64,000 nt of DNA from a virus, in the IMG/VR virus record IMGVR_UViG_3300025949_000016, one strand, 5' to 3'. Shown here piece after piece: positions 5,632-21,883 of the stretch. Under the pieces are notes generated by a model. The model searched no databases. It was given only the letters and a program-made list of their open reading frames with translations, and was not told the origin of the DNA. A program made the translations under genes and the position numbers. The stretch's first letter is position 1; each line of letters starts with the position of its first letter.

Positions 5632-6135
5632 ATGAAAAATATAATATGTATAGGTCCAATATGCTCTGGAAAAACTACGTGGTCTTTAGATTTTGTTAGA
5701 AATAACGATGATTATATAAGATTTAGTCTAGATGAGTTTAGAATGATGACAAATGGCTCTATATCATCCGATAAAATTGATGATAGATTTATGGCCATTA
5801 TGTACAACTTTATAATAAATATAAACTTTCATAAAAAAGGATTAATAATAGATAATCTTCCACTCAATATTGATTGGTTTAATGTAGTACTAAACGGCAG
5901 CTCTAAAGACGTGCAGATAAAACTCTTCGATGTAGAATTAAGAGAATCTATACTTAGAAATCATAAAAGAAAAAGAGAAGGTGGTCATTTTTTACTTCCA
6001 ACAGTTATTTCAGAATATATGGAAAAATACAGAAATTTCTTAGACTCAAATGAATTTAAGAAATTTACAATAAATAAAAGAGTAGAAGTAATAATAGATG
6101 ATTTTGTAAATATAAATAAACAATTTATTGCGTAA
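5632..6135 (+). CDS. P-loop kinase (polynucleotide kinase-like)
   Basis: GPICSGKTT, DEFR, IIDN, RNHKR lid. Confidence 0.8.
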   Translation: MKNIICIGPICSGKTTWSLDFVRNNDDYIRFSLDEFRMMTNGSISSDKIDDRFMAIMYNFIININFHKKGLIIDNLPLNIDWFNVVLNGSSKDVQIKLFDVELRESILRNHKRKREGGHFLLPTVISEYMEKYRNFLDSNEFKKFTINKRVEVIIDDFVNINKQFIA

Positions 6136-6161: not shown

Positions 6162-6845
6162 ATGGCTAATTCTGCACTAATTTTTGGTGAATCTAAAACA
6201 GGTAAGTCAACTTCTATTGAAAAGTTAGATCCTGCTACAACTTTTATTATCAATGTGGCAGATAAACCTCTACCTTTTAGAGGTTGGAGGTCTAAATATG
6301 TACCATTTAATTCTAAAGAAAAGACAGGAAATATTATTTCTATAAGAAGAGTTGATCATATATTAAAAGTATTAGATATAATAGATAAAGAAATGCCACA
6401 CGTTAAAACAATTGTGTTGGAAGATTTTCAATATATGTCTGCATTTGAATTTATGCTAAGAATAAAAGAGAATGGATACAATAAGTTTAATGATATAGCT
6501 AGTAATATTTTAACAGTTGCTAGTATTAAGCCTCAAGAAATGAGGAAAGATCTTATTATCTTTTATTTAAATCATGAAGAAGATGAAGTTGATGATAAAG
6601 GAGTAGTTAAAATAAGAGCAAAAACCTGCGGAAAGTTAATTAATAAGCTTATAACTTTTGAAGGATTATTTACTACTGTTTTAAGATCTAATAATAGAAG
6701 TGGTGAGAAAGGTATTGAATATTTCTTTGAAACCCAAAGTAATGGAACAACTACCGCAGGTACTCCAAAAGGAATGTTTGAAGAAGTAGAAATACCTAAC
6801 GACCTTGAACTAGTCAGGAAAGCCATTATAGATTACGAACAATAA
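6162..6845 (+). CDS. Sak4-like/AAA_24 ATPase (recombinase)
   Basis: GESKTGKS, KPLPF, IVLEDFQY; adjacent to SSB. Confidence 0.8.
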   Translation: MANSALIFGESKTGKSTSIEKLDPATTFIINVADKPLPFRGWRSKYVPFNSKEKTGNIISIRRVDHILKVLDIIDKEMPHVKTIVLEDFQYMSAFEFMLRIKENGYNKFNDIASNILTVASIKPQEMRKDLIIFYLNHEEDEVDDKGVVKIRAKTCGKLINKLITFEGLFTTVLRSNNRSGEKGIEYFFETQSNGTTTAGTPKGMFEEVEIPNDLELVRKAIIDYEQ

Positions 6846-7539: not shown

Positions 7540-7565
7540 AAGCCTCTCCCTTGCGAGAGGCTTTT
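7540..7565 (+). terminator. intrinsic terminator after SSB
   Basis: AAGCCTCTC-ccttgc-GAGAGGCTT followed by T. Confidence 0.65.
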
Positions 7566-7577
7566 AAATTGAATGAA

Positions 7578-8576
7578 ATGTATAAATATGACTTAAACAA
7601 TATTATTGAAACAATAAACGATGTACCGGAGGAGTGGATTTACAAGTATTATTATGAACAGAGATTCTTAGGTGATCCCAATCCTTTAAGAGGGAAAATC
7701 TATCAACCGTTTGATGGTAGAATAATAAGAGTGAGATCTGCTGTTTCTAGAGATACAAATCCATCACTGGTATTTTATTATAAAAATGGACACTACTTAT
7801 GGAATGATTTTTCTAGTGGTATGAAAGGAGATGCCGTAGCTTTTGTATCTTATATTCTAAATAAAAATAGAAGTCAAGCAGAAATTAACATTTTATATAG
7901 TTATGAAGAATTCTTATCCAATGGAGGAGAAATTAAACCTATTATTATAAGGGAAAGAGAAAAAGCAATCTTTGAACCAATAACAAAATCATTTTCTCAA
8001 TATTCTATAGAAGACTTTGCAAGTTATAAAATATCTCTTTCTACATTAAATTTCTATAAAGTTAAACAATTAGATGAATACAAAATAAAAAAAGGTTCTA
8101 CTATTACTACTCATACAGGATATACTTTCGGATTTTTTTGCAATAAAGGATTATATCAAATATATAGTCCTGGAATGGAGAAAAATAAATATATCCATGT
8201 TGATACGTCTTATCTTATAGGTAGTGAACAATTAGAATTTAAAAGTGATAATTGTCTAATCATATCTGGCCTTAAAGATATAATGGCACTTAGAGACCTT
8301 CAGTTAGACGTTGAATGTGTTGCAGGTTTATCAGAAACTTCTTTATTATCATATGATCAAATAGACTTTTTACGCAGTCATTATAAATTTATATTAACTA
8401 TGTTTGATAATGATAGAGCAGGATTAGAAGGTATGAGAAGATATAAAAAAGTGTATGATATAGACTTTGTGCATGTTCAAATGGAAAAAGATTTAGCTGA
8501 AAATAACCGGTCATACAGTCCAGAGTTTCTAAGAGCTGGTTATACTATACTTATAAATAAAAAAATTAATATGTGA
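7578..8576 (+). CDS. DNA primase (TOPRIM)
   Basis: DTNPSL, WNDFSSG, SGLKD, FDNDRAG, KDLAE; ATG 7578 preferred to the TTG inside the hairpin. Confidence 0.8.
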   Translation: MYKYDLNNIIETINDVPEEWIYKYYYEQRFLGDPNPLRGKIYQPFDGRIIRVRSAVSRDTNPSLVFYYKNGHYLWNDFSSGMKGDAVAFVSYILNKNRSQAEINILYSYEEFLSNGGEIKPIIIREREKAIFEPITKSFSQYSIEDFASYKISLSTLNFYKVKQLDEYKIKKGSTITTHTGYTFGFFCNKGLYQIYSPGMEKNKYIHVDTSYLIGSEQLEFKSDNCLIISGLKDIMALRDLQLDVECVAGLSETSLLSYDQIDFLRSHYKFILTMFDNDRAGLEGMRRYKKVYDIDFVHVQMEKDLAENNRSYSPEFLRAGYTILINKKINM

Positions 8577-8898: not shown

Positions 8899-9303
8899 AT
8901 GAATAAGTGTTGTTTTTATGGATCACTTAGAAAGGCTATGTATAATTATACTAAAATAATTAATAAGCATGGAGTAAATTCAATGAAATATATAAAGACT
9001 ATAAAACTTCCTGGATTTACTTTATACGATACTAATTTAGGATACCCGACCGCTATTAGATCTTTCGGTGATAATATAATAGTAGTAGATCTATTTGAAT
9101 TAGATGATCATGCATTTGAATCCATAGAGTATATGGAAGTTAATGCAGGTTATGAAGAAGATTTTGTGAGTATTGACGACCAAACATATAGTATATTCTT
9201 ATTTAGCTCCAATCAAATAGAAGAAAACTTTAAATTAATCACAAGTGGTGATTGGATAATGTACGTTAATAAATCAATCTTTATAAAACAATTAAATAAT
9301 TAA
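8899..9303 (+). CDS. gamma-glutamylcyclotransferase (GGACT/AIG2-like)
   Basis: FYGSLRK..N, LGYP, IEYME, SGDW. Confidence 0.85.
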   Translation: MNKCCFYGSLRKAMYNYTKIINKHGVNSMKYIKTIKLPGFTLYDTNLGYPTAIRSFGDNIIVVDLFELDDHAFESIEYMEVNAGYEEDFVSIDDQTYSIFLFSSNQIEENFKLITSGDWIMYVNKSIFIKQLNN

Positions 9304-9306
9304 GAT

Positions 9307-9711
9307 ATGTTAATGCAATCTAAGAAAAAAGTTAAGAAAGTTAATTCTCAATTAAAACCTAAACCAACTCATTTTTATCTTAGAATATTTTCAAGGCATC
9401 CTAGTACAGAAAAGATTAGACATAAAATACTTGTTCCAAAAGTTAAAGCTGTTTATAGACATGGATCTACCACTGTATCTAATTTTGAATATGAAGTTAA
9501 TAGTATTGACTGTATAAAGAATAGTGCTGATAAACTATTAATGAAAAAATGCTTTGATAAAGCAGAAGTTCATCATGCTCCTTGGTTTCATATGAGTGAG
9601 ATTGAATCTAAGAAGAAAGAGTTTGAAGAATTTCTAAAAAAGATTGATTTTGAAAAAGATAAAGAGTCTTTCTTAATTATTAAGAATCGTTGGGGATCTA
9701 GAGGAGTTGGT
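9307..9711 (+). CDS. ATP-grasp ligase, exon 1 (135 codons)
   Basis: NSADKLLMK and IIKNRWGSRGVG ATP-grasp loop; ends in T at the 5' splice site. Confidence 0.85.
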
Positions 9712-9720
9712 GAAATATCT

Positions 9721-9752
9721 TTTGGTTAATTGAAAGATTTTTCGTATATTGT
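9721..9752 (+). promoter_or_regulatory. intron-internal promoter candidate for the endonuclease
   Basis: TTTG - 20 nt - TATATTGT; ATG at 9756. Confidence 0.55.
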
Positions 9753-9755
9753 TAT

Positions 9756-10358
9756 ATGGAAGAAAAAATAACAATATATGCATTGATTGATCCAATATCA
9801 CTAAAAATTAGATATATTGGTAGAACAAAATGCTCCCTTAAAAAAAGATTAAGAGAACATATAAGTAAAGCTAAAAATAATTATAACAATACTCATAAAT
9901 CAAATTGGATTAAAAGTCTTTTAAGGATTAATCTAAAACCTTTTATAAGAAAACTAACTATTATAGATGGGTGGACAGAATCTCATAAATTTGAAAGATA
10001 TTTAATTAATAAATATAAGCATAGGCTTTTGAATCACGATGATAGAGGTGAAGGTGAGATGTTTAGAGAAATTTCACTTGAGCAAAGAAAAAAAATTTCA
10101 AATACTTTAAAAGAATACTTTGAAATAAATAAAAATAATCTATCTTGGTGTAAGAAAGTATATGCATATTCTTATGATGGAGTGTTTATAAGTGAGCATC
10201 CATCAATAAGACAAGCAAGTAAGGATTTAAGAGTAAAGGAAAGAACTATAAGAAATAGTTGTTATAATAAAACAAAATATCCAAAAATTGGTCATAAACA
10301 ATTTAGCTTTATAAAAGTAGAATCAATGAAAAATTGGACAATAAAAACAGAGAGTTAA
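9756..10358 (+). CDS. GIY-YIG homing endonuclease with NUMOD1-like C-terminus
   Basis: IYAL...RYIG...RLREH...E...N; KKVYAYSYDG...SIRQAS. Confidence 0.9.
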   Translation: MEEKITIYALIDPISLKIRYIGRTKCSLKKRLREHISKAKNNYNNTHKSNWIKSLLRINLKPFIRKLTIIDGWTESHKFERYLINKYKHRLLNHDDRGEGEMFREISLEQRKKISNTLKEYFEINKNNLSWCKKVYAYSYDGVFISEHPSIRQASKDLRVKERTIRNSCYNKTKYPKIGHKQFSFIKVESMKNWTIKTES

Positions 10359-10609
10359 TTGCCGTGTTATGTGGTAACACATAATATTATTATTGAGTAA
10401 AATCGGTGAATTCTGAGAAGAAAATACCGAGCTAATTTCTGAAAATAAAGAGTCAGAAACAGTGTAACGCATAGGAACTGAAACTAGAAATAGAATATAA
10501 TGTTCCCAAGAGTGCTCGACATCCTAATGGGATGAAAATATATGCTGAGCTTACAAGAATTTGAATTGTAAGAACTAAAGGATAAAAAGCCTTTAGGATA
10601 ACAAAACTG

Positions 10610-11083
10610 AACTATTTAATAAAAACAAAAGTAGATCTTGATAAATTCATTAAAGATAAATCAAAGAGTCTTGAAAATTATATTATTGAAGAATATAAAA
10701 ACTATAGCGTAGAATATAGGTTACATGTAAGTAGAGAAGGATGTTTCTATGCTTGTAGAAAGGTTCTTAAAAAAGATACTCCTAAGGAAAATAGGTTTCA
10801 AAGACATGATGATAATTGCTCTTGGTTAGTAGAAACCAATCCAGGATTTAATAAGCCAGAAAACTGGAATGAAATAGTAGAAGACTGCAAGAAAGCAGTA
10901 GTTGCAATGGATGCTGATGTGTTAGCTTTTGATGTTAAGTGTACTTCTATTAAGGATAAGAAGGATAAAAAGTGTAGATTTATTCTTATAGAAAGTTGCA
11001 GTGCAGCATCTTTTGGAGATAAAACTGCGGAAAAATACATTCAAGAGTTACCTAAAATATTAAAATTAAAGTACGGACTATGA
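10610..11083 (+). CDS. ATP-grasp ligase, exon 2 (157 codons plus stop; absent from the ORF track)
   Basis: NYLIK...YIIEEY...EYRLHV...AFDV...ILIESCSAASFG; TGA overlaps the next ATG. Confidence 0.85.
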   Translation, partial: NYLIKTKVDLDKFIKDKSKSLENYIIEEYKNYSVEYRLHVSREGCFYACRKVLKKDTPKENRFQRHDDNCSWLVETNPGFNKPENWNEIVEDCKKAVVAMDADVLAFDVKCTSIKDKKDKKCRFILIESCSAASFGDKTAEKYIQELPKILKLKYGL

Positions 11084-11769
11084 AAATTATAGATGAAGTA
11101 AGTTCAAAATATAACCTATTTGAGATAGGACATGGGCAAAGAGAGGTTCAATTTGCATTTATAGATGGAAAAACTGGTAAAACGATAACTCCATTCTGTA
11201 GATGCAAGGATTATTTTAATGATATGTTCTTTTCAAATAAGATAGGTAAGGAACTAAGTATTTATGGATTTCATTGGAAGCCTAATCAAGACGAAGGTAT
11301 TTTAGATAGAAATACAATGACAGTGGCTGTTAGATTAAGGGATCAACATACTAAGAATATCTATGATCTTAAAGAAGAAGAGATACAATCGGTAAGAAAA
11401 TTAATGCAACAAGTTTCTAATAAAGCAGGTCTTGGTAGAATAATTGTTAGAGTATGTGAAGAAAATAAGAATATTATCGTATACTTTAATAGAAAATGGG
11501 CAGATACTCCTTATCTAAATAGTGCATTTTTCTTCTTTATTAGACTTGGATTTACGTATAAAAATGGAGAAGATATATTATCTTGGTATAATAAAGGAGA
11601 AAAATTCATATCTCCCAATGATCAATTCTATTTCAAACAAGGTTCTTCTAGAATAAAGGATATATTAGAAGGTAAACTTGACTTAAATCAGAAATATGAA
11701 ATGTATACTAATGCTAATATTCATGGAGCATCTGGGTTAATTGGTTATAAAGATTATAAGGTAGCTTAA
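11080..11769 (+). CDS. uncharacterised protein of the amidoligase cluster
   Basis: 229 aa with a CRCKDYFND motif; coupled to ATP-grasp exon 2. Confidence 0.6.
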   Translation: MKIIDEVSSKYNLFEIGHGQREVQFAFIDGKTGKTITPFCRCKDYFNDMFFSNKIGKELSIYGFHWKPNQDEGILDRNTMTVAVRLRDQHTKNIYDLKEEEIQSVRKLMQQVSNKAGLGRIIVRVCEENKNIIVYFNRKWADTPYLNSAFFFFIRLGFTYKNGEDILSWYNKGEKFISPNDQFYFKQGSSRIKDILEGKLDLNQKYEMYTNANIHGASGLIGYKDYKVA

Positions 11770-11791
11770 AAGAAATAAAAAAAATATAAAT

Positions 11792-14245
11792 ATGGAAGTA
11801 ATATATTTAAAAGTTTTACTATATGTAGTTGGATTTCATAGTTTACTCTGGTGTTATTTAAAGCGAAGGGGACATAAATTCAGTTCATTAGGATGCGGAA
11901 TAAGTGGATTTGTAGGCTCTAAGCCAGCTGATCCAAACCTTATTAGGATCATTATGATGTTTAATGAAAGTAGAGGAGAAGATGGAACTGGATGGGCAGT
12001 CAACAATATCGTAGAAAAGGATACAGAGAAAGTAACTAAGTTCATTCAATCTCATAGTCTAGATATAAGTCCAGAGGATGAAAATTTTACCATAGTCGCT
12101 CACGCTAGAAAATCAAGTTCCGGTACTAAAAATAATAAAGAATTGGTTCATCCTTTCTCTATTTATGCTGATGGAGTAGAAAAAGATAAACCAGATCTCA
12201 TATTAGCTATGAATGGAACTTTAACAAATACTCAATTAATGGCTACTACATTTGAAGTACCTTATAAAGAATTTACAAATTCTGATACTCAAATGTTAGC
12301 TAGAGCAATGGCTAAATTGGGAGAAAAAGATTATGTTAAGGCTATAGAAGGGTATGAAGGTACTGCCACTTTAGTGTTTTTTACTCCTAAACATCCTAAT
12401 ACATTACTGGTATATAGAGATCCGCAGCGGGCAATATACTATTGGCAGAAATCCGAAGATGAAATGTATATATCATCTATGGAAGAGCCTTTAGTAGCAG
12501 TTGGCGCTAATAAAAATGAAGTAATTGTATTTGAGAGTGAACATTTATATAAAATTGTTAAAGGTAAAATAAAGGAAAAAAAGAAAATAGATAGAAATCC
12601 TCTTAAGTATAAATCTTTATATCAAACTAATAAGCAGCATCGTCATGCAAGAGATGGAATGTATTATGAAAATGAGTATGGCTATAGTGATTATGAAAAT
12701 TGCCAGGTTCCTTTAATTGATATGAGGACTAGAGCAAAAAATATAAAAAGTCTTCATGCAGGAAAAGGAAATCTTGTTTATTGTTTACAAGATAAATACT
12801 ATAGAAATGGTCATTTATGTAGCGGAATGCTTAAAATAAATGATAAAGGAGAAGTAAATGAAAGGTTAGAATCTAACGAATTTAAAAAATACTTCTTTAT
12901 TAATGGTTATATGTGTAAAGATGAGCAAGCTTATGATAAATTAACGGATAAGTGCTCAGATAAAAATGGAAGGTTTGATATTAAAAAGTTTAAAAGTTTT
13001 TATCTTTCCGAACTAGTTGAGTTTTTTAAATATCCAATAACAACTATTGTAAATGAAAAAGAAAGATGGATACTTAACTCAGAGTATTCTACAAAATGCC
13101 AAACAATAGGAGATAAAATGGATATTGATATATTTTTATCACCTAATATTATTACGGTTAGATACGATGGAGAATTTACTGCCACTACTCTAAAAGATGT
13201 GGCTAATGTTGTATTAATTAAAGAAAGAGAACTTACAGTAAACCAAAGTTGTAAAAATTTAACAAATAAAACGGTTGATAAAATAAATAGTGAAGTTAAT
13301 GAAACAATACAGCACACTGAATTAGTTAGAATAATAAAAACAGATACAAGAAAAACATTTAGATCTAATTACTTCTATACTTTATATAGAATAGACATAG
13401 CCAAATGTAACCCAAGTCCTGAAGTAAAAGTTCATTTCTTTTCGATTCTATTAAAAGAATTAAGACATTTTAATGTAATAACAGAAGGGAGATATAATCA
13501 GTTACTTAATGAAGGTAGTAAAAATAAATTTGAAAGTCATGAATTAATAAAAGAGATAGATAAGTATATTGAACCTTTTTATAATAAATTAAATTATAAA
13601 AACGAAGATAAAATATCTAATATTCTATCTACAATAGATAAATTAAATTTATTAGATAATAGTGAAAGTAAAATTACAGAAGAAGATGTTATTAAAAGTA
13701 TTCGTGATAATAATGAATTATTCAACAATAATAACTTTAATAATGATTTGTTAGATTATAGTGAGGAAACTTTCAGTAAATTTACTACAAATTGGGTTCC
13801 AATTGATACTATGGATCATATGTATCCTTTTGCGGAGGCAATATGTTTATGTTTACATAAAATTGGATTTATTAATTTTAGTGAATTAGAAGACATTTTA
13901 AATAATAGTTATATAACTTTATTAAAAAGGACCGAGGCTTTATGGAATAACTGGAGAGAACAATACAAAGAGACAAGTGATAAAGTATTAAAAAATGCAA
14001 AAAAAATAATTAGTGAAGAAATTATTGAAGAAGTATTTTCATCGGAAGATCTTGAGAAAGAATGTAAAGATGAAATAAGCAATATTGTTGATTCTATAAA
14101 ATCTTATATTCAACAAGTTGAGGTTCAAGATATTGAACTAAGAACTCCTTGGATTGAAGATTCATTGAATCATATGGAATCGACAATAGGTTATATAAAG
14201 AGATATTTATTAAAGGAAGAAAAACAAGAAAATGAAAAAGAATAA
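11792..14245 (+). CDS. class II (Ntn) glutamine amidotransferase with N-terminal hydrophobic leader and long C-terminal extension
   Basis: CGISG at residue 35, SRGEDGTG, HARKSS, HPF, MNGTL, SDTQ. Confidence 0.85.
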   Translation: MEVIYLKVLLYVVGFHSLLWCYLKRRGHKFSSLGCGISGFVGSKPADPNLIRIIMMFNESRGEDGTGWAVNNIVEKDTEKVTKFIQSHSLDISPEDENFTIVAHARKSSSGTKNNKELVHPFSIYADGVEKDKPDLILAMNGTLTNTQLMATTFEVPYKEFTNSDTQMLARAMAKLGEKDYVKAIEGYEGTATLVFFTPKHPNTLLVYRDPQRAIYYWQKSEDEMYISSMEEPLVAVGANKNEVIVFESEHLYKIVKGKIKEKKKIDRNPLKYKSLYQTNKQHRHARDGMYYENEYGYSDYENCQVPLIDMRTRAKNIKSLHAGKGNLVYCLQDKYYRNGHLCSGMLKINDKGEVNERLESNEFKKYFFINGYMCKDEQAYDKLTDKCSDKNGRFDIKKFKSFYLSELVEFFKYPITTIVNEKERWILNSEYSTKCQTIGDKMDIDIFLSPNIITVRYDGEFTATTLKDVANVVLIKERELTVNQSCKNLTNKTVDKINSEVNETIQHTELVRIIKTDTRKTFRSNYFYTLYRIDIAKCNPSPEVKVHFFSILLKELRHFNVITEGRYNQLLNEGSKNKFESHELIKEIDKYIEPFYNKLNYKNEDKISNILSTIDKLNLLDNSESKITEEDVIKSIRDNNELFNNNNFNNDLLDYSEETFSKFTTNWVPIDTMDHMYPFAEAICLCLHKIGFINFSELEDILNNSYITLLKRTEALWNNWREQYKETSDKVLKNAKKIISEEIIEEVFSSEDLEKECKDEISNIVDSIKSYIQQVEVQDIELRTPWIEDSLNHMESTIGYIKRYLLKEEKQENEKE

Positions 14246-15815
14246 TAAACTTGTAAAAGATTATAAAGGTAATCTTATTCCTAAAGCAAGTGCTAGAAAA
14301 ATAGGAGAAAAGTATTATGAAGAAGGAAAGTCTTGTTTTTTAATGGAAGATGGTCAGTGGTATAGAATAACATCTACAGAAAAGATAATATATGATCATT
14401 ATAAAAAAGGTTATGTATTAGTTAATTCAACTAAACTATTAGATGGCATTATTAATGAAAAAGGTGAATTAGGTAAGTTTAGTGAAAATGACTTCTATGT
14501 AACAGGTAGAAAAAAAGAAGGTAGGAAAACTGGAGTATATAATCTAATACTTAATGAAAAAATAGCAGAAAAACTAGGATACATAGAATCTATCGGAGAT
14601 GGATTCTTCTATCCTAAGGATGAAATTACAGAAGAAGATAAAAAAGGATGGTTTAATAAAAAAACAATTCCTGCCACAGAAAGATCTAAGAGTTATAATC
14701 TAGAATCTGATCCTGAAAGAAAAAGACAATTGCAAGAATGCTATGATAAGTTAGATATTAAAATATCTCCTATAAGTAGGAAAATTGCAGGATGGATTGG
14801 GGATTATACATGGGGTATGGAAGCCGAGGTTATCAATGGTCATATACCAAGAAGAATAAGAACTATTTATGGAATTAAGGCTTTAAAGGATGGAAGCTTG
14901 AGACATGACGGAGGAGAAGGAATTGAATACGTTTCCATGCCAATGTCTGGACCTAAAGGAGTTGAAGTAATAAGAAAATTCTGTCAAGAATTATCCAGGA
15001 GATGTGAAGTTAATAATTTATGCTCTGTTCATTTTCATTTTGGAAATGTACGTAAAGATAAGTTATATGTCATTGCTCTTTATAGAATAATTACTTTAAT
15101 TCAAAACGAGCTTGTAAAGTATTTTCCATATTCTAGATTTAATTCTATAAGACCTGACGGTAAAGTTTATTGTAAACTATTAAATGATCTAGAAATAAAT
15201 TATATAAGAATTCTTAAATGTGAGTCTGAAGAAAACTTTCATAAATTAGTTGTAGAGGAATTTAATAAGATTTACAAATGGTTAAATAATGGTAAAGGAT
15301 TATCGGAATTAGTAGAAGAGCCTAAAGTAATAAGAGAAACAACTATTATAAACGGAAAGAAAATGTTCTGTGATAAATGGTTAAAGAAGGTGTTTACTAC
15401 TAAATCTGTTAATCATGCTATTAATGGTCAGAAATGGGACCGCGCCGAAAGATATTTCTTAGTTAATTTCCTTAATTTATTCTTTAGTAATATAGGAACT
15501 ATAGAGTTTAGGCAAATGGAGGGAAGTACAAATTCTACTAAGGTTTTAATTTGGTTTGTAACGTGTGCCTCTGTACTAAAATATGCTGAAGACATAAAAA
15601 GAGGGTTAAGTATTAAGAAACTAACATTAAAGGATATTCTTATAGATAATATTGACGAAGAGTATGCCGATTATATAATGGAATATTTTAAGTTAAGAAA
15701 TAAGCAATTCTTTAACGGAGATTCTTATAAAGGAAATTATAAATCAATCGAAAATGAATGGTTTAAAAATGATTCAGAGTTTAACTTTAAATTAGGTAAT
15801 ATAGAAATAAAATAA
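14232..15815 (+). CDS. putative amidoligase (COOH-NH2 ligase, Amidoligase_2-like)
   Basis: WGMEAE, DGSL, IEYVS, CSVHFH, TIEFR. Confidence 0.85.
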   Translation: MKKNNKLVKDYKGNLIPKASARKIGEKYYEEGKSCFLMEDGQWYRITSTEKIIYDHYKKGYVLVNSTKLLDGIINEKGELGKFSENDFYVTGRKKEGRKTGVYNLILNEKIAEKLGYIESIGDGFFYPKDEITEEDKKGWFNKKTIPATERSKSYNLESDPERKRQLQECYDKLDIKISPISRKIAGWIGDYTWGMEAEVINGHIPRRIRTIYGIKALKDGSLRHDGGEGIEYVSMPMSGPKGVEVIRKFCQELSRRCEVNNLCSVHFHFGNVRKDKLYVIALYRIITLIQNELVKYFPYSRFNSIRPDGKVYCKLLNDLEINYIRILKCESEENFHKLVVEEFNKIYKWLNNGKGLSELVEEPKVIRETTIINGKKMFCDKWLKKVFTTKSVNHAINGQKWDRAERYFLVNFLNLFFSNIGTIEFRQMEGSTNSTKVLIWFVTCASVLKYAEDIKRGLSIKKLTLKDILIDNIDEEYADYIMEYFKLRNKQFFNGDSYKGNYKSIENEWFKNDSEFNFKLGNIEIK

Positions 15816-15816
15816 A

Positions 15817-16473
15817 ATGAAAGATTATAAGTATTATGCATCTGCATGTAGTAGTAGTCATGGTAATTTTTTAGAGCCTCTTGGTTTTTCTTCAACAAAT
15901 AATATTGAAGAAGCTGACGTAATTATATTTGGAGGTGGTGCAGATGTTGATCCGAAGAATTATGGAGAAGAGAAAGGATCTAGAACATATGCTAATCCAA
16001 AAAGAGATAAAGAGGAAATAAGAGATTTCAAATTTGCTCAAAAAGTTGGAATTCCTTCTCTGGGAATCTGTAGAGGTCATCAATTCCTTTGTGCAATGGT
16101 AGGAGGTAAGCTAATTCAAGATGTAAGTAATCATGCTGGATCTGATCATCAAATTTCTACATTTGATGGACTAACACTTACTACAAATAGTCTTCACCAT
16201 CAAATGATAAACCCATATATCTTAAAGCCTAAGGAATATAAGATATTAGCATGGACTCCTAAAAGACTTTCTAATAGGTATTTTGGAGCAAAGGATAAAT
16301 CAGTTTATCTTCCTTATGAATTTAAGGAAATTGAAGCAATATATTTCCCTACTATTAGAGCATTTAGTGTACAGTTTCACCCAGAAATGATGTTTAATCG
16401 TAGTGGAAAAAATGAAGCAGTTGTTACTTGGACGCAAAAAACATTTTTGCAATTTTTTGAAAATAAACTTTAA
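15817..16473 (+). CDS. class I glutamine amidotransferase / peptidase C26 (PuuD-like)
   Basis: GGGADV, GICRGHQ, NSLHHQ, QFHPE. Confidence 0.9.
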   Translation: MKDYKYYASACSSSHGNFLEPLGFSSTNNIEEADVIIFGGGADVDPKNYGEEKGSRTYANPKRDKEEIRDFKFAQKVGIPSLGICRGHQFLCAMVGGKLIQDVSNHAGSDHQISTFDGLTLTTNSLHHQMINPYILKPKEYKILAWTPKRLSNRYFGAKDKSVYLPYEFKEIEAIYFPTIRAFSVQFHPEMMFNRSGKNEAVVTWTQKTFLQFFENKL

Positions 16474-16484
16474 ATATAATTAAT

Positions 16485-17231
16485 ATGTACAGACCTAAGA
16501 TAGGAATCGTTGGATGGTCAACAGGACCTAATTCGTTTGGTGCTACAAAACCTTATTTACATCATTTATCTTTATTTGGAGACGTGATTATACTTCCTCC
16601 AACTAAAACTACATATGACTTTTTAGACTTAGTAGTCTTACCAGGCGGAGCAGATACATTACCAACTAGATATGGAATGGTTCCTGGATATTATAATAGT
16701 GATCCTGATCAATACAAAGAAGCTTTTATTGATCTTAACCTCCAAAACTATATTAATGCAGGTATTCCAATTTGGGGTACTTGTTTGGGATTTCAACAAT
16801 TAATAGTTTATTTCGGTGGGAAAATGATTCAAAATATAGTAGGTCATAGTCATAGTGACGTGGAAAAATATGGTAGAGGCCATGAAGTAAATGAGTTAAC
16901 ATTTGTTCCTAAGTACGAGCCATTTAGGGATAAAATGTTAAAGATAAGGCCAAGAGCACCCAAGAAAATAAAAGTATGTTCATTACATCATCAAGGCATT
17001 GAGTTTGATGAAGATAAGCCAAACTATGGTTTACCAGAGTGTTTAGATGTAATTGCATATAGTGAAGAACTAGTAGAGTTTTTTAGACATAAAGAACTTC
17101 CTATTGCAGGGGGTCAAAGTCACGTTGAAGAGGATTTTAACATGGTAGGAAACACATTAATCAAAGAACTATTATCCAGATCACCAAATAGAAAGAAATA
17201 TGAATCAACTGTGGAAATCATTAAGAACTGA
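16485..17231 (+). CDS. class I glutamine amidotransferase / peptidase C26
   Basis: PGGAD, GTCLGFQ, SLHHQ, QSHVE. Confidence 0.88.
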   Translation: MYRPKIGIVGWSTGPNSFGATKPYLHHLSLFGDVIILPPTKTTYDFLDLVVLPGGADTLPTRYGMVPGYYNSDPDQYKEAFIDLNLQNYINAGIPIWGTCLGFQQLIVYFGGKMIQNIVGHSHSDVEKYGRGHEVNELTFVPKYEPFRDKMLKIRPRAPKKIKVCSLHHQGIEFDEDKPNYGLPECLDVIAYSEELVEFFRHKELPIAGGQSHVEEDFNMVGNTLIKELLSRSPNRKKYESTVEIIKN

Positions 17232-17685
17232 TTTAAGTACTCTTCTTAATGTAAAAGAAGATTCGTTCCTTATAAAAATTTATGAAAATTCTTCCAATGT
17301 ATTTTTTACGCTGGAAGAATTTTTTAATCAATATAATCCTGAAGAATTACAGAAAGGACAATGTAATTTAATGTTTAGAATAGATGCTGGAGGAAAATCA
17401 ATAGCTACTTTTCAATTAAAAGACATGTATAATTGTAATGGCATAATTGTGGGTAGTGATTTATTAGTGATAAGAGCATTTAGAAATAAAGGATTAGGTA
17501 CCTTACTTACTAAGTTTATGATGGAATTTAGTAAATATTACGGATATGGTGTTATTCAAGCGGCAGATTTAACCAGTAATGAATATCAAGTAAAGATATT
17601 TACTAAGCTTGGATGGGAAAAGAGTATTAATTTTAATAATCCAAAAACTGGTAATAATTTAACAATTTGGTTTAATAAATTTTAA
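17200..17685 (+). CDS. GNAT acetyltransferase
   Basis: acetyl-CoA motif A FRNKGLGT; IFTKLGW. Confidence 0.8.
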   Translation: MNQLWKSLRTDLSTLLNVKEDSFLIKIYENSSNVFFTLEEFFNQYNPEELQKGQCNLMFRIDAGGKSIATFQLKDMYNCNGIIVGSDLLVIRAFRNKGLGTLLTKFMMEFSKYYGYGVIQAADLTSNEYQVKIFTKLGWEKSINFNNPKTGNNLTIWFNKF

Positions 17686-17690
17686 GTAAT

Positions 17691-18533
17691 ATGAAAACTA
17701 TTGATAAAAGTAAAGTATTAGTTGGATCTGATTTTGAAATGTTCTTACAGAATAGTGAAGGAAAAATAATTTCAGCCATCCCATTTAATAGTGGTACTAA
17801 AGAAAACCCTGAGAAAATAGAAGGATATCCTGGATGCTGTATTCAACGTGATGGAATACTTCAGGAATGTAACGTACCTCCAGTAAGATTAGATGAATCT
17901 GATAACTTTATTGAGAATATAAAACTTGTAAAAGAATATATTTATAATAAGTTTGCACACAAATATGATCTAAAATTAGTTTGTTGCCCAACTGCTTGCT
18001 TGGAAGAAGATCAATTGCAACATGATGAGGCTCGACAAATTGGTTGTAGCGCAGATTATAATGCTTGGAAAGATGGAGAAGTAAATGAGAAACCTTCTTA
18101 TGATGATAGCGGACTTAGATGCTGCGGTATGCATTTTCACCTTAGTTATCCAGACGCCGATGTTGATACTTCTATAGATTTAATGAAACTCTTTGATCTT
18201 TTCTTAACCGTTCCATTTGTACTCTTAGACAAAGATAAAGATAGAAGAAAGCTATACGGTAAAGCAGGATCTTTTAGACTCTGTAACTGGGGAGAAGTGG
18301 GAGGATTTGAAGCTAGAACTTTATCTAATTACGTATTATCAGATTATGAACTCATTGAATACGTTTTTAATCAATTAAATGAAATGTTTAATTATTATAA
18401 TACTCATTCAATGGATGAAGTAAATGAAGTAGCTGATGATATTATTAAAGCTATTAATGAATCCAATGAAGAGCTAGCAGGAATAATTTGTGAGAAATTT
18501 GAAATACTTTTACTTTTACCTGAATTATATTAA
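17691..18533 (+). CDS. phiEco32-like COOH-NH2 ligase type 2
   Basis: GSDFEMFL, GCSADYNAW, LRCCGMHFH, RRKLYGKAGSFR, EARTLSN. Confidence 0.88.
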   Translation: MKTIDKSKVLVGSDFEMFLQNSEGKIISAIPFNSGTKENPEKIEGYPGCCIQRDGILQECNVPPVRLDESDNFIENIKLVKEYIYNKFAHKYDLKLVCCPTACLEEDQLQHDEARQIGCSADYNAWKDGEVNEKPSYDDSGLRCCGMHFHLSYPDADVDTSIDLMKLFDLFLTVPFVLLDKDKDRRKLYGKAGSFRLCNWGEVGGFEARTLSNYVLSDYELIEYVFNQLNEMFNYYNTHSMDEVNEVADDIIKAINESNEELAGIICEKFEILLLLPELY

Positions 18534-18535
18534 AT

Positions 18536-19075
18536 ATGACATTAGTAGATTTAAAATCCACCCTACAAAAACTATTAGATGATGACACTATAGATATTAG
18601 ATTGAATGATATAAGTGTAAGTGACAGTGAGATATTAAATACTAAGCTTCTAAATGGAAAAAGATTAGTTTATCCTTATCCAACAGATGTATTTTTTCGA
18701 ATTAACATTAGTGATATAAATCAAGATTTTATATCATTTAATTTAAAAGAATTTAATACTTGTTGTGGTAAATTAATCTTACATGGCATTCGTTATACGG
18801 ATGCATACAATGATTATAAAGATAAAATGAAAGGTAAAGAGTTAAGTAAAGAACTCTTCAAAGAAGCAATTAATCTAATATTTAGTAGTTTAGTGGAAAT
18901 AATGGAAGGATTGGATTATAGCTCTTTATCTTTTATTGTATCTGAAATGGAGCAAAAAAAATTATTTGAAATTTTAACTCATTTAGGTTATAAACCTGTT
19001 AATAGTTTTAGTAACAAAAGAATGCCTTTGAAAAATAAATGTCATGAATATATAATAAATTTGGAAAATTCATAA
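18536..19075 (+). CDS. GNAT-like protein
   Basis: TCCG and LTHLGYKPVNSFSN resemble 17200 and 84. Confidence 0.5.
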   Translation: MTLVDLKSTLQKLLDDDTIDIRLNDISVSDSEILNTKLLNGKRLVYPYPTDVFFRINISDINQDFISFNLKEFNTCCGKLILHGIRYTDAYNDYKDKMKGKELSKELFKEAINLIFSSLVEIMEGLDYSSLSFIVSEMEQKKLFEILTHLGYKPVNSFSNKRMPLKNKCHEYIINLENS

Positions 19076-19095: not shown

Positions 19096-19464
19096 ATGGT
19101 AAATGTAAAACGTAAAGGTGGAAATGCGGAGAGAAAGTTTATTTCTGAGATAAATGGACTTGATTTAGGATATCTTGTAGGTAGTTCTAGATTGCATAGT
19201 AGATATATGGATAATATGGATGTAGATATAGTAGATCATCCATTAGCCACGGCTAAATTTCCCTATCATATTCAGTCTAAAAGTATTACAGGATATCCTA
19301 AATATCATGATATTTTTTCAGAATTTAAACTTACTGATAAACCACTTATTGTATTTCATGAATTAACTGAAAAAAGAGGATCAAGATTCTTTAAACTTTC
19401 AGATTATGTAATAATGAAAAAAGAAGATTTCTATGAAATATTAAAAAGATTAAAAAATGTCTAG
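19096..19464 (+). CDS. Holliday junction resolvase-like PD-(D/E)XK nuclease
   Basis: KRKGGNAER, DVD, IQSK. Confidence 0.75.
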   Translation: MVNVKRKGGNAERKFISEINGLDLGYLVGSSRLHSRYMDNMDVDIVDHPLATAKFPYHIQSKSITGYPKYHDIFSEFKLTDKPLIVFHELTEKRGSRFFKLSDYVIMKKEDFYEILKRLKNV

Positions 19465-20779
19465 AGAAACTAGAAAGCCTGAGTATATAAAAAGTAATTC
19501 TTATATTGAAGATTCAGATAAGATTGAAAGTTATTTTTATAACGTTACATATAATCCTACAGTAAATGTAGTTAATGAACCTGTAGATCCAGGTCCACCA
19601 GAACCACTTGAATTACCTTTATTACCTGAAAATGAAGAATATAAGCTTATATTACAAAACGGAGAGGTTTTTGCTGTAAACGTTGCAGACTATCCTACTT
19701 TTAGAATGGATAATTCATTATTAATAAGTAATGCAATAATGTATGATATTGGTAATAGTCAGCGATTTAAATTTGATAATACTGGATCTGTATGTGTAGA
19801 GCATGTAGATGTTGAAGAGAATGAACATGAACAATATCAATATACTTCTAACTTCGATTTTTATGGTAAATATAAAGTAATAAATTCTGAGAAAAAAGTA
19901 ATAAGTAAAAGCTCATTATCATTTAATGATATTGCTTCCATCCTATATACTCCAGTTTTATACTTCAATAATATAAAAAAAGAAAGTAATCAAATTAACA
20001 AACTTCTTTCTTGCTTTCTTCAAGAAAGTGGTCAATTCGATGAGCGTTTTATCATCAAGCCAAAATCTCCAGATTCTCCTTTACTTGATAAATACTTAAC
20101 AACACTTGCAGAATTAATTAATTCTGAAATTGATGAGAAAGAAGAGATTGAAAATATTGAAGATCTAGAAAAAAAAGCTTATGAAAAAGTAGGCTACAAT
20201 AAACCAATTGAATCAGTAATAAACGAAGCAAAGGATTTTGAAGAATATTTTAGATTTTTACTTGTAAAAAAAGACAAACAAGTAATAGATGAAAAGGACT
20301 ATAATTATGTAAATCAATTAAGTAGTTTAATAAAAAATAGATATAGTTTTAAATCTGGAAAAGCTAAAGTAAATAAAGAATTTTCTTTTGAAGATGAAAA
20401 ATATTCTAAGCAATTTTCATTTTCTGAAGTAGTAGATCGTATTGAAGAATCTGACAGTAATCTTATGATAACTCTATTTTTATATGTTCCAAATATTCTT
20501 AGGTTAACTAATTATTTGGAGGATAATAAAACAGATATTAAAATAGGTATGATTTATGAAATTTTAAATAATAATTATAATAAGAAATCTAAGACTATAA
20601 AATGTACATTATTTGTTTGCGATTCTAATTATAATTGTAAGTTTATTGATATAAAATCAACTACTTTATTAAAGTATAAAAATAGATTTATTGAAGTAAT
20701 AAGTAATTTCGATAAATCACATAATGATAGTAGATTAGCTAATATACCCAGAGAATTAAGAGCATTAAATAGTATATAA
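19457..20779 (+). CDS. possible degenerate PD-(D/E)XK exonuclease-like protein
   Basis: SFNDIASILYTPVLY and VVDRI present, (D/E)xK absent; Pro-rich N-terminal segment. Confidence 0.4.
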   Translation: MSRETRKPEYIKSNSYIEDSDKIESYFYNVTYNPTVNVVNEPVDPGPPEPLELPLLPENEEYKLILQNGEVFAVNVADYPTFRMDNSLLISNAIMYDIGNSQRFKFDNTGSVCVEHVDVEENEHEQYQYTSNFDFYGKYKVINSEKKVISKSSLSFNDIASILYTPVLYFNNIKKESNQINKLLSCFLQESGQFDERFIIKPKSPDSPLLDKYLTTLAELINSEIDEKEEIENIEDLEKKAYEKVGYNKPIESVINEAKDFEEYFRFLLVKKDKQVIDEKDYNYVNQLSSLIKNRYSFKSGKAKVNKEFSFEDEKYSKQFSFSEVVDRIEESDSNLMITLFLYVPNILRLTNYLEDNKTDIKIGMIYEILNNNYNKKSKTIKCTLFVCDSNYNCKFIDIKSTTLLKYKNRFIEVISNFDKSHNDSRLANIPRELRALNSI

Positions 20780-20802: not shown

Positions 20803-21471
20803 ATGAGTTCAGGAAAATCTTATCTTTTACAAGAGACATACGTTCAAAAATCGAGGATATTTCTATTTCCTCTAGTTGGAATACCTAATAGCAAGCATTT
20901 TAGACCCACTAACACATACATAGCAAGTGAAAATTTGATATGTGATGCTTATCCAGAAGGATTATCTTATGATGATAAAACTTTAATTGTATTATATTCT
21001 AAGTCATACAAGAAAAAGGATGATGATTTATATGAGAAAATTAAAGATAATCTAATTAAGAAAATGTCTAGTGACGATGATATACCGAGTGGCTGGGATA
21101 CATTTGAAACCAAAGTCTTATTATCTAATAGAAACTTTATAGCTTTTCACGAAAGTGATGAAGAATATATTTATACTTTTGATTTATCCGATTATGAAGA
21201 TGATTGGAATAATTTTCTAAAAGGTAAATATTCTTTATTTAAAGAAAATACTAAAGATAAGATACTAAGGTTTAGAAAAGATGTATTATCAGACCAAGCA
21301 AAACATAGGTTATATTGTTATTTGTATCCAACAACGAAAGAATGTATAATGGCTTTTGCAAAAGAATTGGAGATGGATGTAAAAGATTTAATGGAGGTTA
21401 AAGAGTTATGTAGTAAACCCGATCTTTTACAAGAAACTTATAAACATTTATTGTATGAAGTTAAAGATTAA
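20803..21471 (+). CDS. hypothetical protein
   Basis: 222-aa ORF upstream of dUTPase. Confidence 0.65.
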   Translation: MSSGKSYLLQETYVQKSRIFLFPLVGIPNSKHFRPTNTYIASENLICDAYPEGLSYDDKTLIVLYSKSYKKKDDDLYEKIKDNLIKKMSSDDDIPSGWDTFETKVLLSNRNFIAFHESDEEYIYTFDLSDYEDDWNNFLKGKYSLFKENTKDKILRFRKDVLSDQAKHRLYCYLYPTTKECIMAFAKELEMDVKDLMEVKELCSKPDLLQETYKHLLYEVKD

Positions 21472-21883
21472 AAAACTATCTGAGAATGCTGTAATTCCTA
21501 CAAAAGCACATTCAACTGATGCAGGATATGATCTAACAGCAATAGGAGTGGAGATTGTAGACCAAGGAAAGTTTGGTTATATAGAGTATAGTTTTGGTTT
21601 GGCTTTTGAAATTCAAGAAGGGTATGCTGGATTTATATTTCCAAGATCCTCTATATCGAAGACAGGATTACTTCTTGCCAATGCAGTTGGAGTAATTGAC
21701 TCTTCATATCGAGGACCTGTTACAGCAAGGTTTAAGCATATACCTGGAACCAAACGTTATGAAATAGGAGATAGAGTAGCTCAGTTAGTTATTTTAAAAT
21801 TAGAAGATGTAGAAATAGAAATAACCGACACTTTGTCAGATTCTGACCGTGGAACTGGTGGTTATGGTTCTAGTGGTTCATAA
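21455..21883 (+). CDS. dut: trimeric dUTPase
   Basis: AGYDL, PRSS, GVIDSSYRG, RVAQL, RGTGGYGSSG. Confidence 0.97.
   Translation: MKLKIKKLSENAVIPTKAHSTDAGYDLTAIGVEIVDQGKFGYIEYSFGLAFEIQEGYAGFIFPRSSISKTGLLLANAVGVIDSSYRGPVTARFKHIPGTKRYEIGDRVAQLVILKLEDVEIEITDTLSDSDRGTGGYGSSGS

Follow-up and report, generated by a model that had tools for sequence, protein, structure and literature searches.

The region from 8899 to 19075 of the window, by which we mean the whole 64,000-nucleotide stretch of viral DNA analysed here, carries the amidoligase cassette of phiEco32/LUZ24/7-11-type phages in an intact and expanded form. We hold with high confidence that the locus is this cassette and that it is functional, and its best overall explanation is probably an intact, expanded amidoligase cassette that makes an amide-linked product. 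The carrier is a rhizosphere or soil phage distantly related to the crAss-like group, and in it the cassette lies after the primase and before the next recombination/replication genes, with the dUTPase/DNA polymerase on its far side. Inspection of the open reading frames (ORFs) placed ten cassette genes here, all co-oriented on the plus strand and tightly packed, with spacers of −32 to +22 nt and with overlaps of 4 nt between the ATP-grasp and X229 genes, 14 nt between the stop of the amidotransferase and the start of the Amidoligase_2 gene, and 32 nt between C26b and the GNAT gene. A sequence-only reading of this DNA had described a nine-gene cluster of co-oriented, mostly coupled genes; the orientation and coupling are borne out, but the count is ten cassette genes, plus a GIY-YIG/NUMOD1 endonuclease within an insert.

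Pfam and PHROGs profile searches of the window ORFs reproduced the enzyme families called in that reading and assigned no family to the ORFs at 11080–11769 and 18536–19075. Three of the enzymes are ATP-dependent carboxylate-amine ligases, each with its own fold (ATP-grasp, Amidoligase_2 and COOH-NH2 ligase). Three more are of amidotransferase type, one of them Ntn and two class I/C26; a GNAT with a GNAT-like paralogue, a GGACT-like cyclotransferase and X229 complete the set. The gene order is kept in five related metagenomic contigs of 37–148 kb, and because the same order recurs in L002, L003, L004 and L007, whose ligases are 50–73% identical to those of the window, the cassette is not a chance grouping. 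A lack of co-occurrence in related genomes and misaligned catalytic residues had been named beforehand as grounds for doubt; the genes are instead conserved together, and their catalytic motifs are aligned and intact.

The ATP-grasp gene is split into an upstream exon (9307–9711, 135 codons, ending ...GSRGVG) and a downstream exon (10610–11083, 157 codons, in the ORF 10586–11083, which matches phrog_2599 at 1e-9). When joined, the exons give a 292-aa ATP-grasp ligase that aligns end to end, and without a gap at the junction, with seven uninterrupted orthologues of 284–296 aa at 57–67% identity. The intervening 898 nt (9712–10609, plus strand) are probably a group I intron: T9711 closes the upstream exon and G10609 closes the insert, the 258 non-coding nucleotides at its 3′ end fold with a z-score of −5.2, and the insert encodes a 200-aa GIY-YIG and NUMOD1 homing endonuclease (9756–10358, plus strand; PF01541, 2.8e-6; PF07453, 1.8e-6). 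No Rfam match was found for the insert, and both of its boundaries are crossed by DNA contigs of three other samples. Judged from the sequence, the ATP-grasp gene requires removal of this intron-like insert, the splicing itself being predicted. The metal motif of this ATP-grasp clade is Glu-Ser-Cys, whereas that of its relatives is Glu-x-Asn.

The class II (Ntn) glutamine amidotransferase (11792–14245, 817 aa; GATase_6, 1e-9) aligns its nucleophile Cys35 with Cys1 of PurF, and C35, N141-G142 and D165 are invariant. Ahead of the nucleophile stand 34 codons of a hydrophobic leader, a putative propeptide (11792–11893); a leader precedes the cysteine in 34 of 42 full-length relatives, being hydrophobic in 33 of them and 26–36 aa long, and the remaining eight begin Met-Cys. 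The enzyme has about 550 extra residues; its middle domain is beta-rich and its tail is helical. A model of residues 300–570 reached a pLDDT of 88, and this beta domain had no fold match, residues ~496–567 being weakly winged-helix-like in the model (Z≤6.3). The adjoining glutamine-synthetase-like Amidoligase_2 ligase (14232–15815, 527 aa; PF12224, 1.6e-7; phrog_2443, 9e-21), with invariant E197/E199, H267/H269 and E425/R427, lies next to the Ntn amidotransferase in all cassettes examined.

The other enzymes likewise retain their motifs. The GGACT/AIG2-like gamma-glutamyl(amine) cyclotransferase (8899–9303, 134 aa; PF06094, 2e-11; phrog_2520) has a YG(S/T)LR motif and a Glu80 that are invariant in four orthologues, and its profile aligns with YtfP (1xhs) and PH0828 (1v30). 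The two class I amidotransferase/peptidase C26 enzymes are C26a (15817–16473, 218 aa; PF07722, 1.3e-21) and C26b (16485–17231, 248 aa; PF07722, 1.8e-17). The cysteine (GICRGHQ) and His-Pro-Glu of C26a align with Lin1909 (3fij) and also with 7d4r/7d53/7d50, deposited as ‘probable glutamine amidotransferase’, which we take to be P. aeruginosa SpuA; the cysteine (GTCLGFQ) and His-x-Glu of C26b align with TrpG/PabA-type chains, and its C100, H213 and E215 are invariant. The NCBIfam matches of the C26 enzymes are far below the cut-offs and mixed (GuaA, TrpG, PuuD and gamma-glutamyl-CDP-amidate hydrolase). The phiEco32-type COOH-NH2 ligase of the GCS/GS superfamily (17691–18533, 280 aa; PF14395, 2.7e-8; phrog_3815, 8e-53) is present in 311 phage records, and D14, E16, E59, H148, R185, E207 and R209 are invariant across 36 sequences. 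The GNAT acyltransferase GNAT161 (17200–17685, 161 aa) matches PF00583 (Acetyltransf_1) at 7.7e-6, above the curated cut-off, and conserves the R-x-x-G-x-G motif. Y179 (18536–19075, 179 aa) is a fast-evolving protein, only 21–35% identical to its orthologues, which had been called a second GNAT-like protein; that call stands as far as profile comparison carries it, with an hhalign probability of 91% and reciprocal HMM matches to the GNAT161 family, and the two proteins have a C-C/N-G motif in common.

The remaining gene, X229 (11080–11769), whose product had been listed as an unknown CRCKDY protein, belongs to a family of at least 320 representative clusters at 50% identity (E≤1e-3), with invariant C42, D44, S148 and G219. 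Its AlphaFold2 model (pLDDT 96.3) weakly suggests a fold like that of the glutamine-synthetase/PafA ligases, the top matches being PafA, Dop, GS and GCL at Z 6.2–4.1, below the tool's caution level of 8; an hhalign comparison with the COOH-NH2 ligase was negative. In L006, L010, L011 and L012, X229 stands beside genes for a COOH-NH2 ligase and C26 enzymes, and two C26 enzymes are typical of the cassettes with X229, L011 having one within the stretch examined. X229 thus represents a new, unnamed family linked to the cassette.

The cassette itself is an already described system, which genomics has recognised since 2009 in hundreds of phages. The phiEco32/LUZ24-type cassette was predicted by Iyer, Abhiman, Burroughs and Aravind in 2009, with a role in the cell wall or superinfection exclusion, according to PMC10580990, which cites their work, and the gene list for UFV-P2 is given in PMC3890496. 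In phiEco32, the LUZ24 group (PaP3, tf, UFV-P2) and 7-11, as in the window, a COOH-NH2 ligase, an Amidoligase_2 beside a class II amidotransferase, an ATP-grasp and an AIG2/GGCT-like protein are co-oriented near the primase in the early/replication arm. The core shared with the 2009 cassette is thus the ATP-grasp, the Ntn amidotransferase with Amidoligase_2, the COOH-NH2 ligase and the GGCT. In contrast to these phages, the window has the reverse gene order, an amidotransferase of 817 aa with a hydrophobic propeptide rather than one of 486–649 aa, and two C26 enzymes, X229, the GNAT and the GNAT-like paralogue in addition; X229, the propeptide and ~550 residues of the amidotransferase, and the GNAT with its divergent paralogue are the additions of this variant. 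Directly behind the ligase, UFV-P2 and 7-11 encode a protein of 186–201 aa with no detectable kinship to Y179 or C26.

A six-to-seven-gene version is already annotated in the crAss-like cr108_1 (MT774385, Steigviridae). In this phage and its metagenomic relative L008 the cassette has the same genomic position as in the window, with the primase and then a small ORF immediately ahead of it. Both share the ATP-grasp, C26, Ntn amidotransferase, amidoligase and COOH-NH2 ligase (39–40% identity) but have a single C26, a canonical Met-Cys amidotransferase of 450–492 aa and, in place of GGACT, the GNAT pair and X229, two paralogous proteins of 300 and 329 aa with no assigned family. The expanded set is also present in the cultured Leptolyngbya cyanophage Lbo-JY46 (PP438436), which like L012 has two or three C26 paralogues, the COOH-NH2 ligase, the ATP-grasp, X229-family proteins, a long Ntn amidotransferase (679–729 aa) and a long amidoligase (495–526 aa); in Lbo-JY46 a GGCT is annotated and the ATP-grasp has a 240-aa C-terminal extension. 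The 6.2-kb contig L010 carries X229, the COOH-NH2 ligase, two C26 genes and GGACT, and L011 carries one C26, two X229-family genes and the COOH-NH2 ligase within the stretch examined. X229 is duplicated in L011 and L012 and apparently tandem-fused in L010 (551 aa), and Lbo-JY46 and L010–L012 differ from the window in gene order and in lacking the GNAT pair. The genes that had been put forward as the window's best candidate for an undescribed system are real, co-oriented, coupled, conserved together and catalytically intact, but the core is the cassette predicted in 2009, and versions exist in cr108_1 and Lbo-JY46.

In the literature searched, a product, substrate or phenotype is reported for no copy of the cassette, and the writer/eraser pathway and targets proposed in the sequence-only reading are to be taken as interpretation. 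The most likely function is a pathway, fuelled by glutamine or glutamate, of amide ligation and trimming on a small molecule or a precursor of the envelope; that the target is of this kind rather than protein or DNA we put forward tentatively, at somewhat less than an even chance. It is rather unlikely that the target is instead a host or phage protein, to which the ligases would add glutamate, a different amino acid or a short peptide in the manner of RimK, PafA and tubulin-tyrosine-ligase-like enzymes, with C26 and GGACT removing or recycling the tag. Such tagging would agree with the PHROGs label of the ATP-grasp, ‘ribosomal protein S6 glutaminyl transferase’, with the Pup ligase PafA and depupylase Dop being the top fold matches of X229, and with the peptide-tagging systems of these folds discussed by Iyer et al. 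2009. However, the ATP-grasp subfamily has only weak Ddl/PurK matches among PDB and NCBIfam profiles, against which it is not demonstrably RimK-like, the PafA/Dop match is weak, and in no lineage does the cassette contain or adjoin a conserved small gene for an acidic-tailed carrier or substrate.

Extension or amidation of a modified base is improbable, although the cassette lies in the replication block, a small AAA_33 P-loop kinase is encoded at 5632–6135 of the same window, and Lee et al. 2021 (PMC8989533) found that, in some viral contigs, genes with amidoligase and amidotransferase Pfam domains neighbour those for thymidine hypermodification. Among plus-strand ORFs of at least 120 aa in positions 1–26452 of the window there is no ThyA-family hydroxymethylase, aGPT-Pplase-like or TET/JBP gene, Lbo-JY46 has the same expanded set without a ThyA-family gene genome-wide, and we found no support for DNA modification. 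Very improbable, in our estimate, is a role in counter-defence or host takeover, in which the cassette would make or destroy a glutamine- or glutamate-derived host metabolite or signal, for example one linked to NAD salvage. PrsA-like and NAMPT/PncB-like genes do lie 0–3.5 kb from the cassette in Salmonella phage 7-11 and Lbo-JY46, but this adjacency may mean only a shared accessory-gene region, the window and its close relatives have no such neighbours, and no cassette protein matched a PADLOC model.

The transmembrane-like predicted propeptide of the amidotransferase suggests a membrane-proximal step, and the substrate favoured here is therefore a small metabolite or a precursor of the envelope, either peptidoglycan or lipid-linked. 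During the replication phase, the enzymes would spend ATP and glutamine or glutamate in successive ligations, yielding a gamma-glutamyl-type or amidated product. The Ntn amidotransferase and the always-adjacent Amidoligase_2 would together make up one glutamine-dependent ligase. The C26 enzymes may either provide a ligase with ammonia or cut back gamma-glutamyl groups, while the GNAT could cap an amine and GGACT would recycle gamma-glutamyl-amine side products to 5-oxoproline. The same logic, in which a GS-like or different ATP-dependent ligase is paired with a glutamine-hydrolysing enzyme of the class I/C26 or Ntn type, occurs in the gamma-glutamylation pathways PuuA/PuuD and PauA/SpuA and in the two-component amidating ligases MurT/GatD and AsnB-type mDAP amidation; no cassette protein reaches the curated NCBIfam cut-off for such cellular gamma-glutamylation or amidation models, and the likeness, drawn by analogy, is one of chemistry rather than of membership.

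The block at 8899-19075 is a well-conserved and genuine feature, and the sequence-only reading of it was correct at the level of enzyme families: the ORFs that it named are present at their coordinates, all on the + strand, and Pfam and PHROGs together reproduce every assignment. The nine genes originally counted become ten, and the supposedly undescribed system is a known cassette without characterisation, present here as a new variant of the phiEco32 type. Along the + strand it encodes a GGACT (an AIG2/GGCT-like cyclotransferase) at 8899-9303 (PF06094, 44.9 bits against a cut-off of 22.8); an ATP-grasp ligase, with its halves in 9307-9729 and 10586-11083 (phrog_2599, 1e-9); the 'CRCKDY' protein X229 at 11080-11769; a class II (Ntn) amidotransferase at 11792-14245 (GATase_6, 38.9 bits against 27); an Amidoligase_2 enzyme at 14232-15815 (PF12224, 31.9 bits against 22); two Peptidase_C26/GATase paralogues, C26a at 15817-16473 and C26b at 16485-17231, and a GNAT at 17200-17685 (all three from Pfam/PHROGs); a phiEco32-type COOH-NH2 ligase at 17691-18533 (PF14395, 33.8 bits against 25; phrog_3815, 8e-53); and the GNAT-like protein Y179 at 18536-19075. 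X229 and Y179 have no family in Pfam/PHROGs. Catalytic residues are conserved in both C26 enzymes, the amidotransferase, the amidoligase, the COOH-NH2 ligase and the GGACT. The packing is operon-like, with intergenic spacers of -32 to +22 nt and overlaps of 4 nt (ATP-grasp/X229), 14 nt (amidotransferase/amidoligase) and 32 nt (C26b/GNAT); promoter-like sites were fewer than in shuffled sequences and terminator-like sites about as frequent, which makes that scan uninformative.

The amidoligase cassette is among the most widespread multi-enzyme modules of tailed phages without a known product. The core of the cassette is that of the phiEco32-, LUZ24/PaP3/tf/UFV-P2- and 7-11-like phages, and all five features tested for membership are present (the PF14395 ligase, the Amidoligase_2 and amidotransferase pair, ATP-grasp, AIG2/GGCT and location in a replication arm). 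In UFV-P2, the order is COOH-NH2 ligase, 186-aa protein, Amidoligase_2, class II amidotransferase, ATP-grasp, AIG2/GGCT and primase/helicase (PMC3890496), and Salmonella phage 7-11 has a similar cassette. By tblastn, the COOH-NH2 ligase occurs in 311 deposited phage genomes. The crAss-like phage cr108_1 carries a six-to-seven-gene version directly after its primase, annotated in part, and a metagenomic contig (L008) has the same form. The copy described here shows that the module reaches environmental crAss-like phages. The cultured cyanophage Lbo-JY46 also has two C26 genes, GGCT, X229, a long amidotransferase and a long amidoligase, so that the expansion is a recurring sub-type, common to unrelated phages and defined here, rather than a crAss peculiarity. 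X229, a confidently folded but unnamed family, and the membrane-type propeptide of the amidotransferase are the additions made here, and both offer handles for the choice of constructs and for the question of membrane action. No phage genome matched the whole block in a megablast search, scans of IMG/VR with back-translated ligase and primase patterns confirmed no relative, PADLOC returned zero cassette matches, and our literature searches found no biochemical characterisation of the cassette. In 7-11 (L005, 1020-3583) and Lbo-JY46 (L006, 3733-7942), the cassette lies near PrsA-like and NAMPT/PncB-like genes, which form a pair of NAD-salvage type; the window has no such pair.

The expected co-occurrence in related genomes was borne out. 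At E<=1e-10, 70 relatives of the COOH-NH2 ligase were found, many of them encoded on contigs of 80-148 kb. Three metagenomic contigs (L002, L003 and L004; 58-73% ligase identity) share the gene order: primase, small ORF, GGACT, intact ATP-grasp, X229, an amidotransferase of 820-837 aa, amidoligase, C26a, C26b, GNAT, ligase and a Y179-like gene. A fourth, L007 (50% ligase identity), nearly does so, with the same order and a 210-aa protein without a Pfam match in the place of the GGACT. An extra gene of no known family (270-281 aa) lies between the amidoligase and C26a in L002 (7266-8111), L003 (6187-6999) and L004 (7325-8146); the window and L007 lack it, and the amidoligase-C26a gap in the window is 1 nt. 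Compared with L002, the enzymes of the window are 47-73% identical, and Y179 only 36%.

The cassette lies in the + strand early/replication arm, among genes for a DnaB-like helicase (4241-5275), a Sak4-like protein (6162-6845), a Toprim primase (7551-8576), a dUTPase (21455-21883) and a DNA polymerase (23605-25560), all on the + strand; the opposite arm includes ORFs of 2441 and 4161 aa. The best matches of the polymerase are crAss-like phages at about 30% identity, which makes the crAss-like label reasonable, the kinship being distant; the best published match of the COOH-NH2 ligase is cr108_1. The sequence was found in rhizosphere and soil metagenome runs. The gene after Y179 (19096-19464, 122 aa) has an E...D...Q-x-K pattern and may encode a small PD-(D/E)XK resolvase, a reading used here only to set the 3' boundary of the cassette, at 19075. 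At the same position, L007 has an unrelated 122-aa protein (11471-11839) that resembles RusA weakly (E 0.0016, short of the cut-off), possibly a non-orthologous replacement. For two genes between the cassette and the dUTPase, 19457-20779 (440 aa) and 20803-21471 (222 aa), Pfam gave nothing up to E<=1; the relatives keep both positions, that of the 440-aa gene less strictly.

The 817-aa Ntn amidotransferase departs from the canonical Met-Cys start, which was found in 8 of 42 full-length relatives of about 800 aa. The other 34 have a leader before the Cys, hydrophobic and 26-36 residues long in 33 (Kyte-Doolittle 17-residue maxima of about 1.8-3.0) and short, at 11 residues, in one. In the window, a hydrophobic leader of 34 residues (11792-11893) ends in ...SSLG and is followed by the nucleophile Cys35, which aligns to Cys1 of PurF and has no start codon beside it; Asn141-Gly142 (oxyanion) and Asp165 (glutamine-binding) are invariant and also align to PurF. 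The activity of Ntn enzymes requires a free N-terminal Cys, and the leader would therefore have to be removed. These features suggest that the amidotransferase is made as a membrane-associated precursor with a propeptide-like leader. Downstream, a beta-rich domain (residues about 328-480) is confidently modelled and gave no fold match in a search that barely covered it; residues about 496-567 are weakly winged-helix-like, and the last 250 or so are helical and poorly conserved. The neighbouring amidoligase keeps E197/E199, H267/H269 and E425/R427. The two enzymes adjoin in all other cassettes seen, and theirs is the one adjacency retained in every lineage.

Among the remaining enzymes, C26a and C26b both retain the Cys and His-x-Glu triad; early labels of PuuD-like for C26a and TrpG-like for C26b were dropped because NCBIfam does not separate the two. 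The YGSLR motif and Glu80 of the GGACT are conserved, and the COOH-NH2 ligase keeps D14, E16, E59, H148, R185, E207 and R209 across 36 sequences, its metal- and ATP-site residues being invariant. The GNAT and Y179 are confined to the clade of the window. For Y179, proposed as a second GNAT-like protein, only profile comparison (hhalign 91%, reciprocal HMM hits) points to a relationship with the neighbouring GNAT; Y179 has no Pfam match and shows no clear R-x-x-G-x-G motif. Single-sequence searches of the PDB with the ATP-grasp enzyme and the amidotransferase were empty, and profiles of X229, the COOH-NH2 ligase and the amidoligase brought up no credible match there.

X229 belongs to a family of 320 representative clusters at E<=1e-3 in an exhaustive HMMER search, without a match in Pfam or to a PDB sequence. 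In an 80-sequence alignment, C42, D44, S148 and G219 are invariant and E15, K43, D48, W140, R155, D181 and H215 nearly so. The AlphaFold2 model is of very high confidence (pLDDT 96.3, pTM 0.93). Foldseek found nothing in the PDB with this model, and an exhaustive VIA search placed PafA, Dop, GshF, several glutamine synthetases and glutamate-cysteine ligases on top (Z of 6.2-4.1, 135-173 residues aligned); all of the top 10 have the GS/GCL/PafA fold, at Z of 4.6-6.2. This weak match suits the cassette theme but is below the tool's own trust level. The conserved set of X229 (C42, K43, D44, D48, R155, D181 and H215) differs from the Glu-rich set usual in that fold, and profile comparison with the COOH-NH2 ligase gave no similarity. 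Every readable DNA context of an X229 relative is the cassette, namely in the window's clade, in Lbo-JY46 (E 2e-37) and in three further metagenomic contigs (L010, L011 and L012); X229 is absent from cr108_1, L008, UFV-P2 and 7-11 within the stretches fetched. The gene is duplicated in L011 (7674-8333 and 9001-9999) and, directly adjacent, in L012 (9001-9684 and 9684-10487), and L010 encodes a 551-aa X229-family protein that is apparently a tandem fusion (669-2324). These pairs and the apparent fusion suggest that X229 may work as a dimer or pseudo-dimer. A kinship hinted at by BFVD for a 300/329-aa protein pair of cr108_1 was rejected, as the hint was weak and the profiles of the pair resemble those of neither X229 nor the ligase nor the amidoligase.

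From these enzyme types, we infer a linking pathway in which three ATP-dependent ligases would form successive amide bonds, as each of the three folds activates a carboxylate with ATP for coupling to an amine. The adjacency kept in every lineage suggests that the Ntn amidotransferase and Amidoligase_2 may pair up as a glutamine-dependent ligase made of two proteins. The C26 enzymes could serve either as ammonia donors, for which MurT/GatD is a precedent, or as gamma-glutamyl hydrolases, as PuuD is; NCBIfam does not separate these roles. GGACT-type enzymes free 5-oxoproline from gamma-glutamyl-amines, and such an activity would fit a glutamate-based chemistry. The hydrophobic propeptide tilts the balance towards a membrane-proximal substrate. 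Together, the enzyme chemistry and the propeptide point to a target that would be either a small metabolite or a precursor of the envelope, a reading that we rank highest while giving it slightly less than an even chance. Iyer, Abhiman, Burroughs and Aravind (2009), as cited in PMC10580990, predicted a cell-wall modification that prevents superinfection. In a bolder version, which we consider a long shot, X229 would be an active, hitherto unrecognised member of the GS/PafA-Dop fold, serving as a fourth ligase or as an amide hydrolase. With a membrane-anchored, self-processing Ntn amidotransferase, it would define a distinct 'expanded' cassette class whose target would be a lipid-linked precursor of the diderm envelope, modified, for instance, so that superinfecting phages are kept out.

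Protein tagging comes next in our ranking and is unlikely: a conserved small carrier with an acidic C-terminus was looked for beside the cassette and none was found. DNA modification, which we hold to be quite improbable, has a parallel in some viral contigs in which amidoligase and amidotransferase domains lie beside thymidine-hypermodification genes (Lee et al. 2021, PMC8989533). Within the arm, the one possible pointer to nucleotide or DNA modification is the gene for a 167-aa AAA_33 P-loop kinase (5632-6135, + strand), which follows the helicase and precedes the Sak4-like protein. Against this reading, Pfam and PHROGs scans of the ORFs in window 1-26452 detected no ThyA-like hydroxymethylase, TET/JBP or aGPT-Pplase; of the components of a thymidine hypermodification cluster (a 5-hmdU source, 5-HMUDK kinase and aGPT-Pplase) none was detected there, only the unassigned AAA_33 kinase, and Lbo-JY46 has its cassette without any ThyA-family gene. 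Counter-defence metabolism stands last in the ranking, as a very improbable role.

The ATP-grasp ligase is intact only with an 898-nt insert (9712-10609) removed. A single gene is divided between the ORF at 9307-9729 and the open frame at 10586-11083, and the gap holds a GIY-YIG/NUMOD1 endonuclease gene (9756-10358). When 9711 is joined to 10610, the product has 292 aa; it is 57-67% identical to uninterrupted orthologues of 284-296 aa, is gap-free across the junction (...IIKNRWGSRGVG/NYLIKTK..., slash at the joint) and keeps the Lys, Gly-rich loop and Glu motifs. A U before the 5' splice site and a terminal G are features of group I introns; here, a T closes the upstream exon and a G closes the insert, the reading frame of the host gene is restored exactly, and a homing endonuclease is nested within. 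The 258 nt 3' of the endonuclease gene have a folding z of -5.2 against shuffles, and Rfam gave no match to the insert at gathering score or E<=1, nor to the window. The gene would be functional only if the insert is an intron, which we predict to be spliced out. The same insert, with both boundaries, occurs in contigs of three other samples, and neither an intron-less allele nor spliced RNA was seen among contigs of four runs. The sole contig from an RNA library, a 170-nt rhizosphere metatranscriptome contig, matches 9804-9973 exactly, within the endonuclease ORF, and contains no splice joint; DNA carry-over is possible. Homing elements are mobile within the window's clade. Glu-x-Asn is the usual metal-binding motif of ATP-grasp enzymes and is found in cr108_1, L008 and Lbo-JY46, whereas the window's clade has Glu-Ser-Cys (...LIESCSAAS..., exon 2, 10996-11010). 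In L003, a GIY-YIG/NUMOD1 endonuclease gene lies between the two C26 genes (7719-8534, - strand), and a ribonucleotide reductase (14559-17189) has an intein bearing a LAGLIDADG domain.
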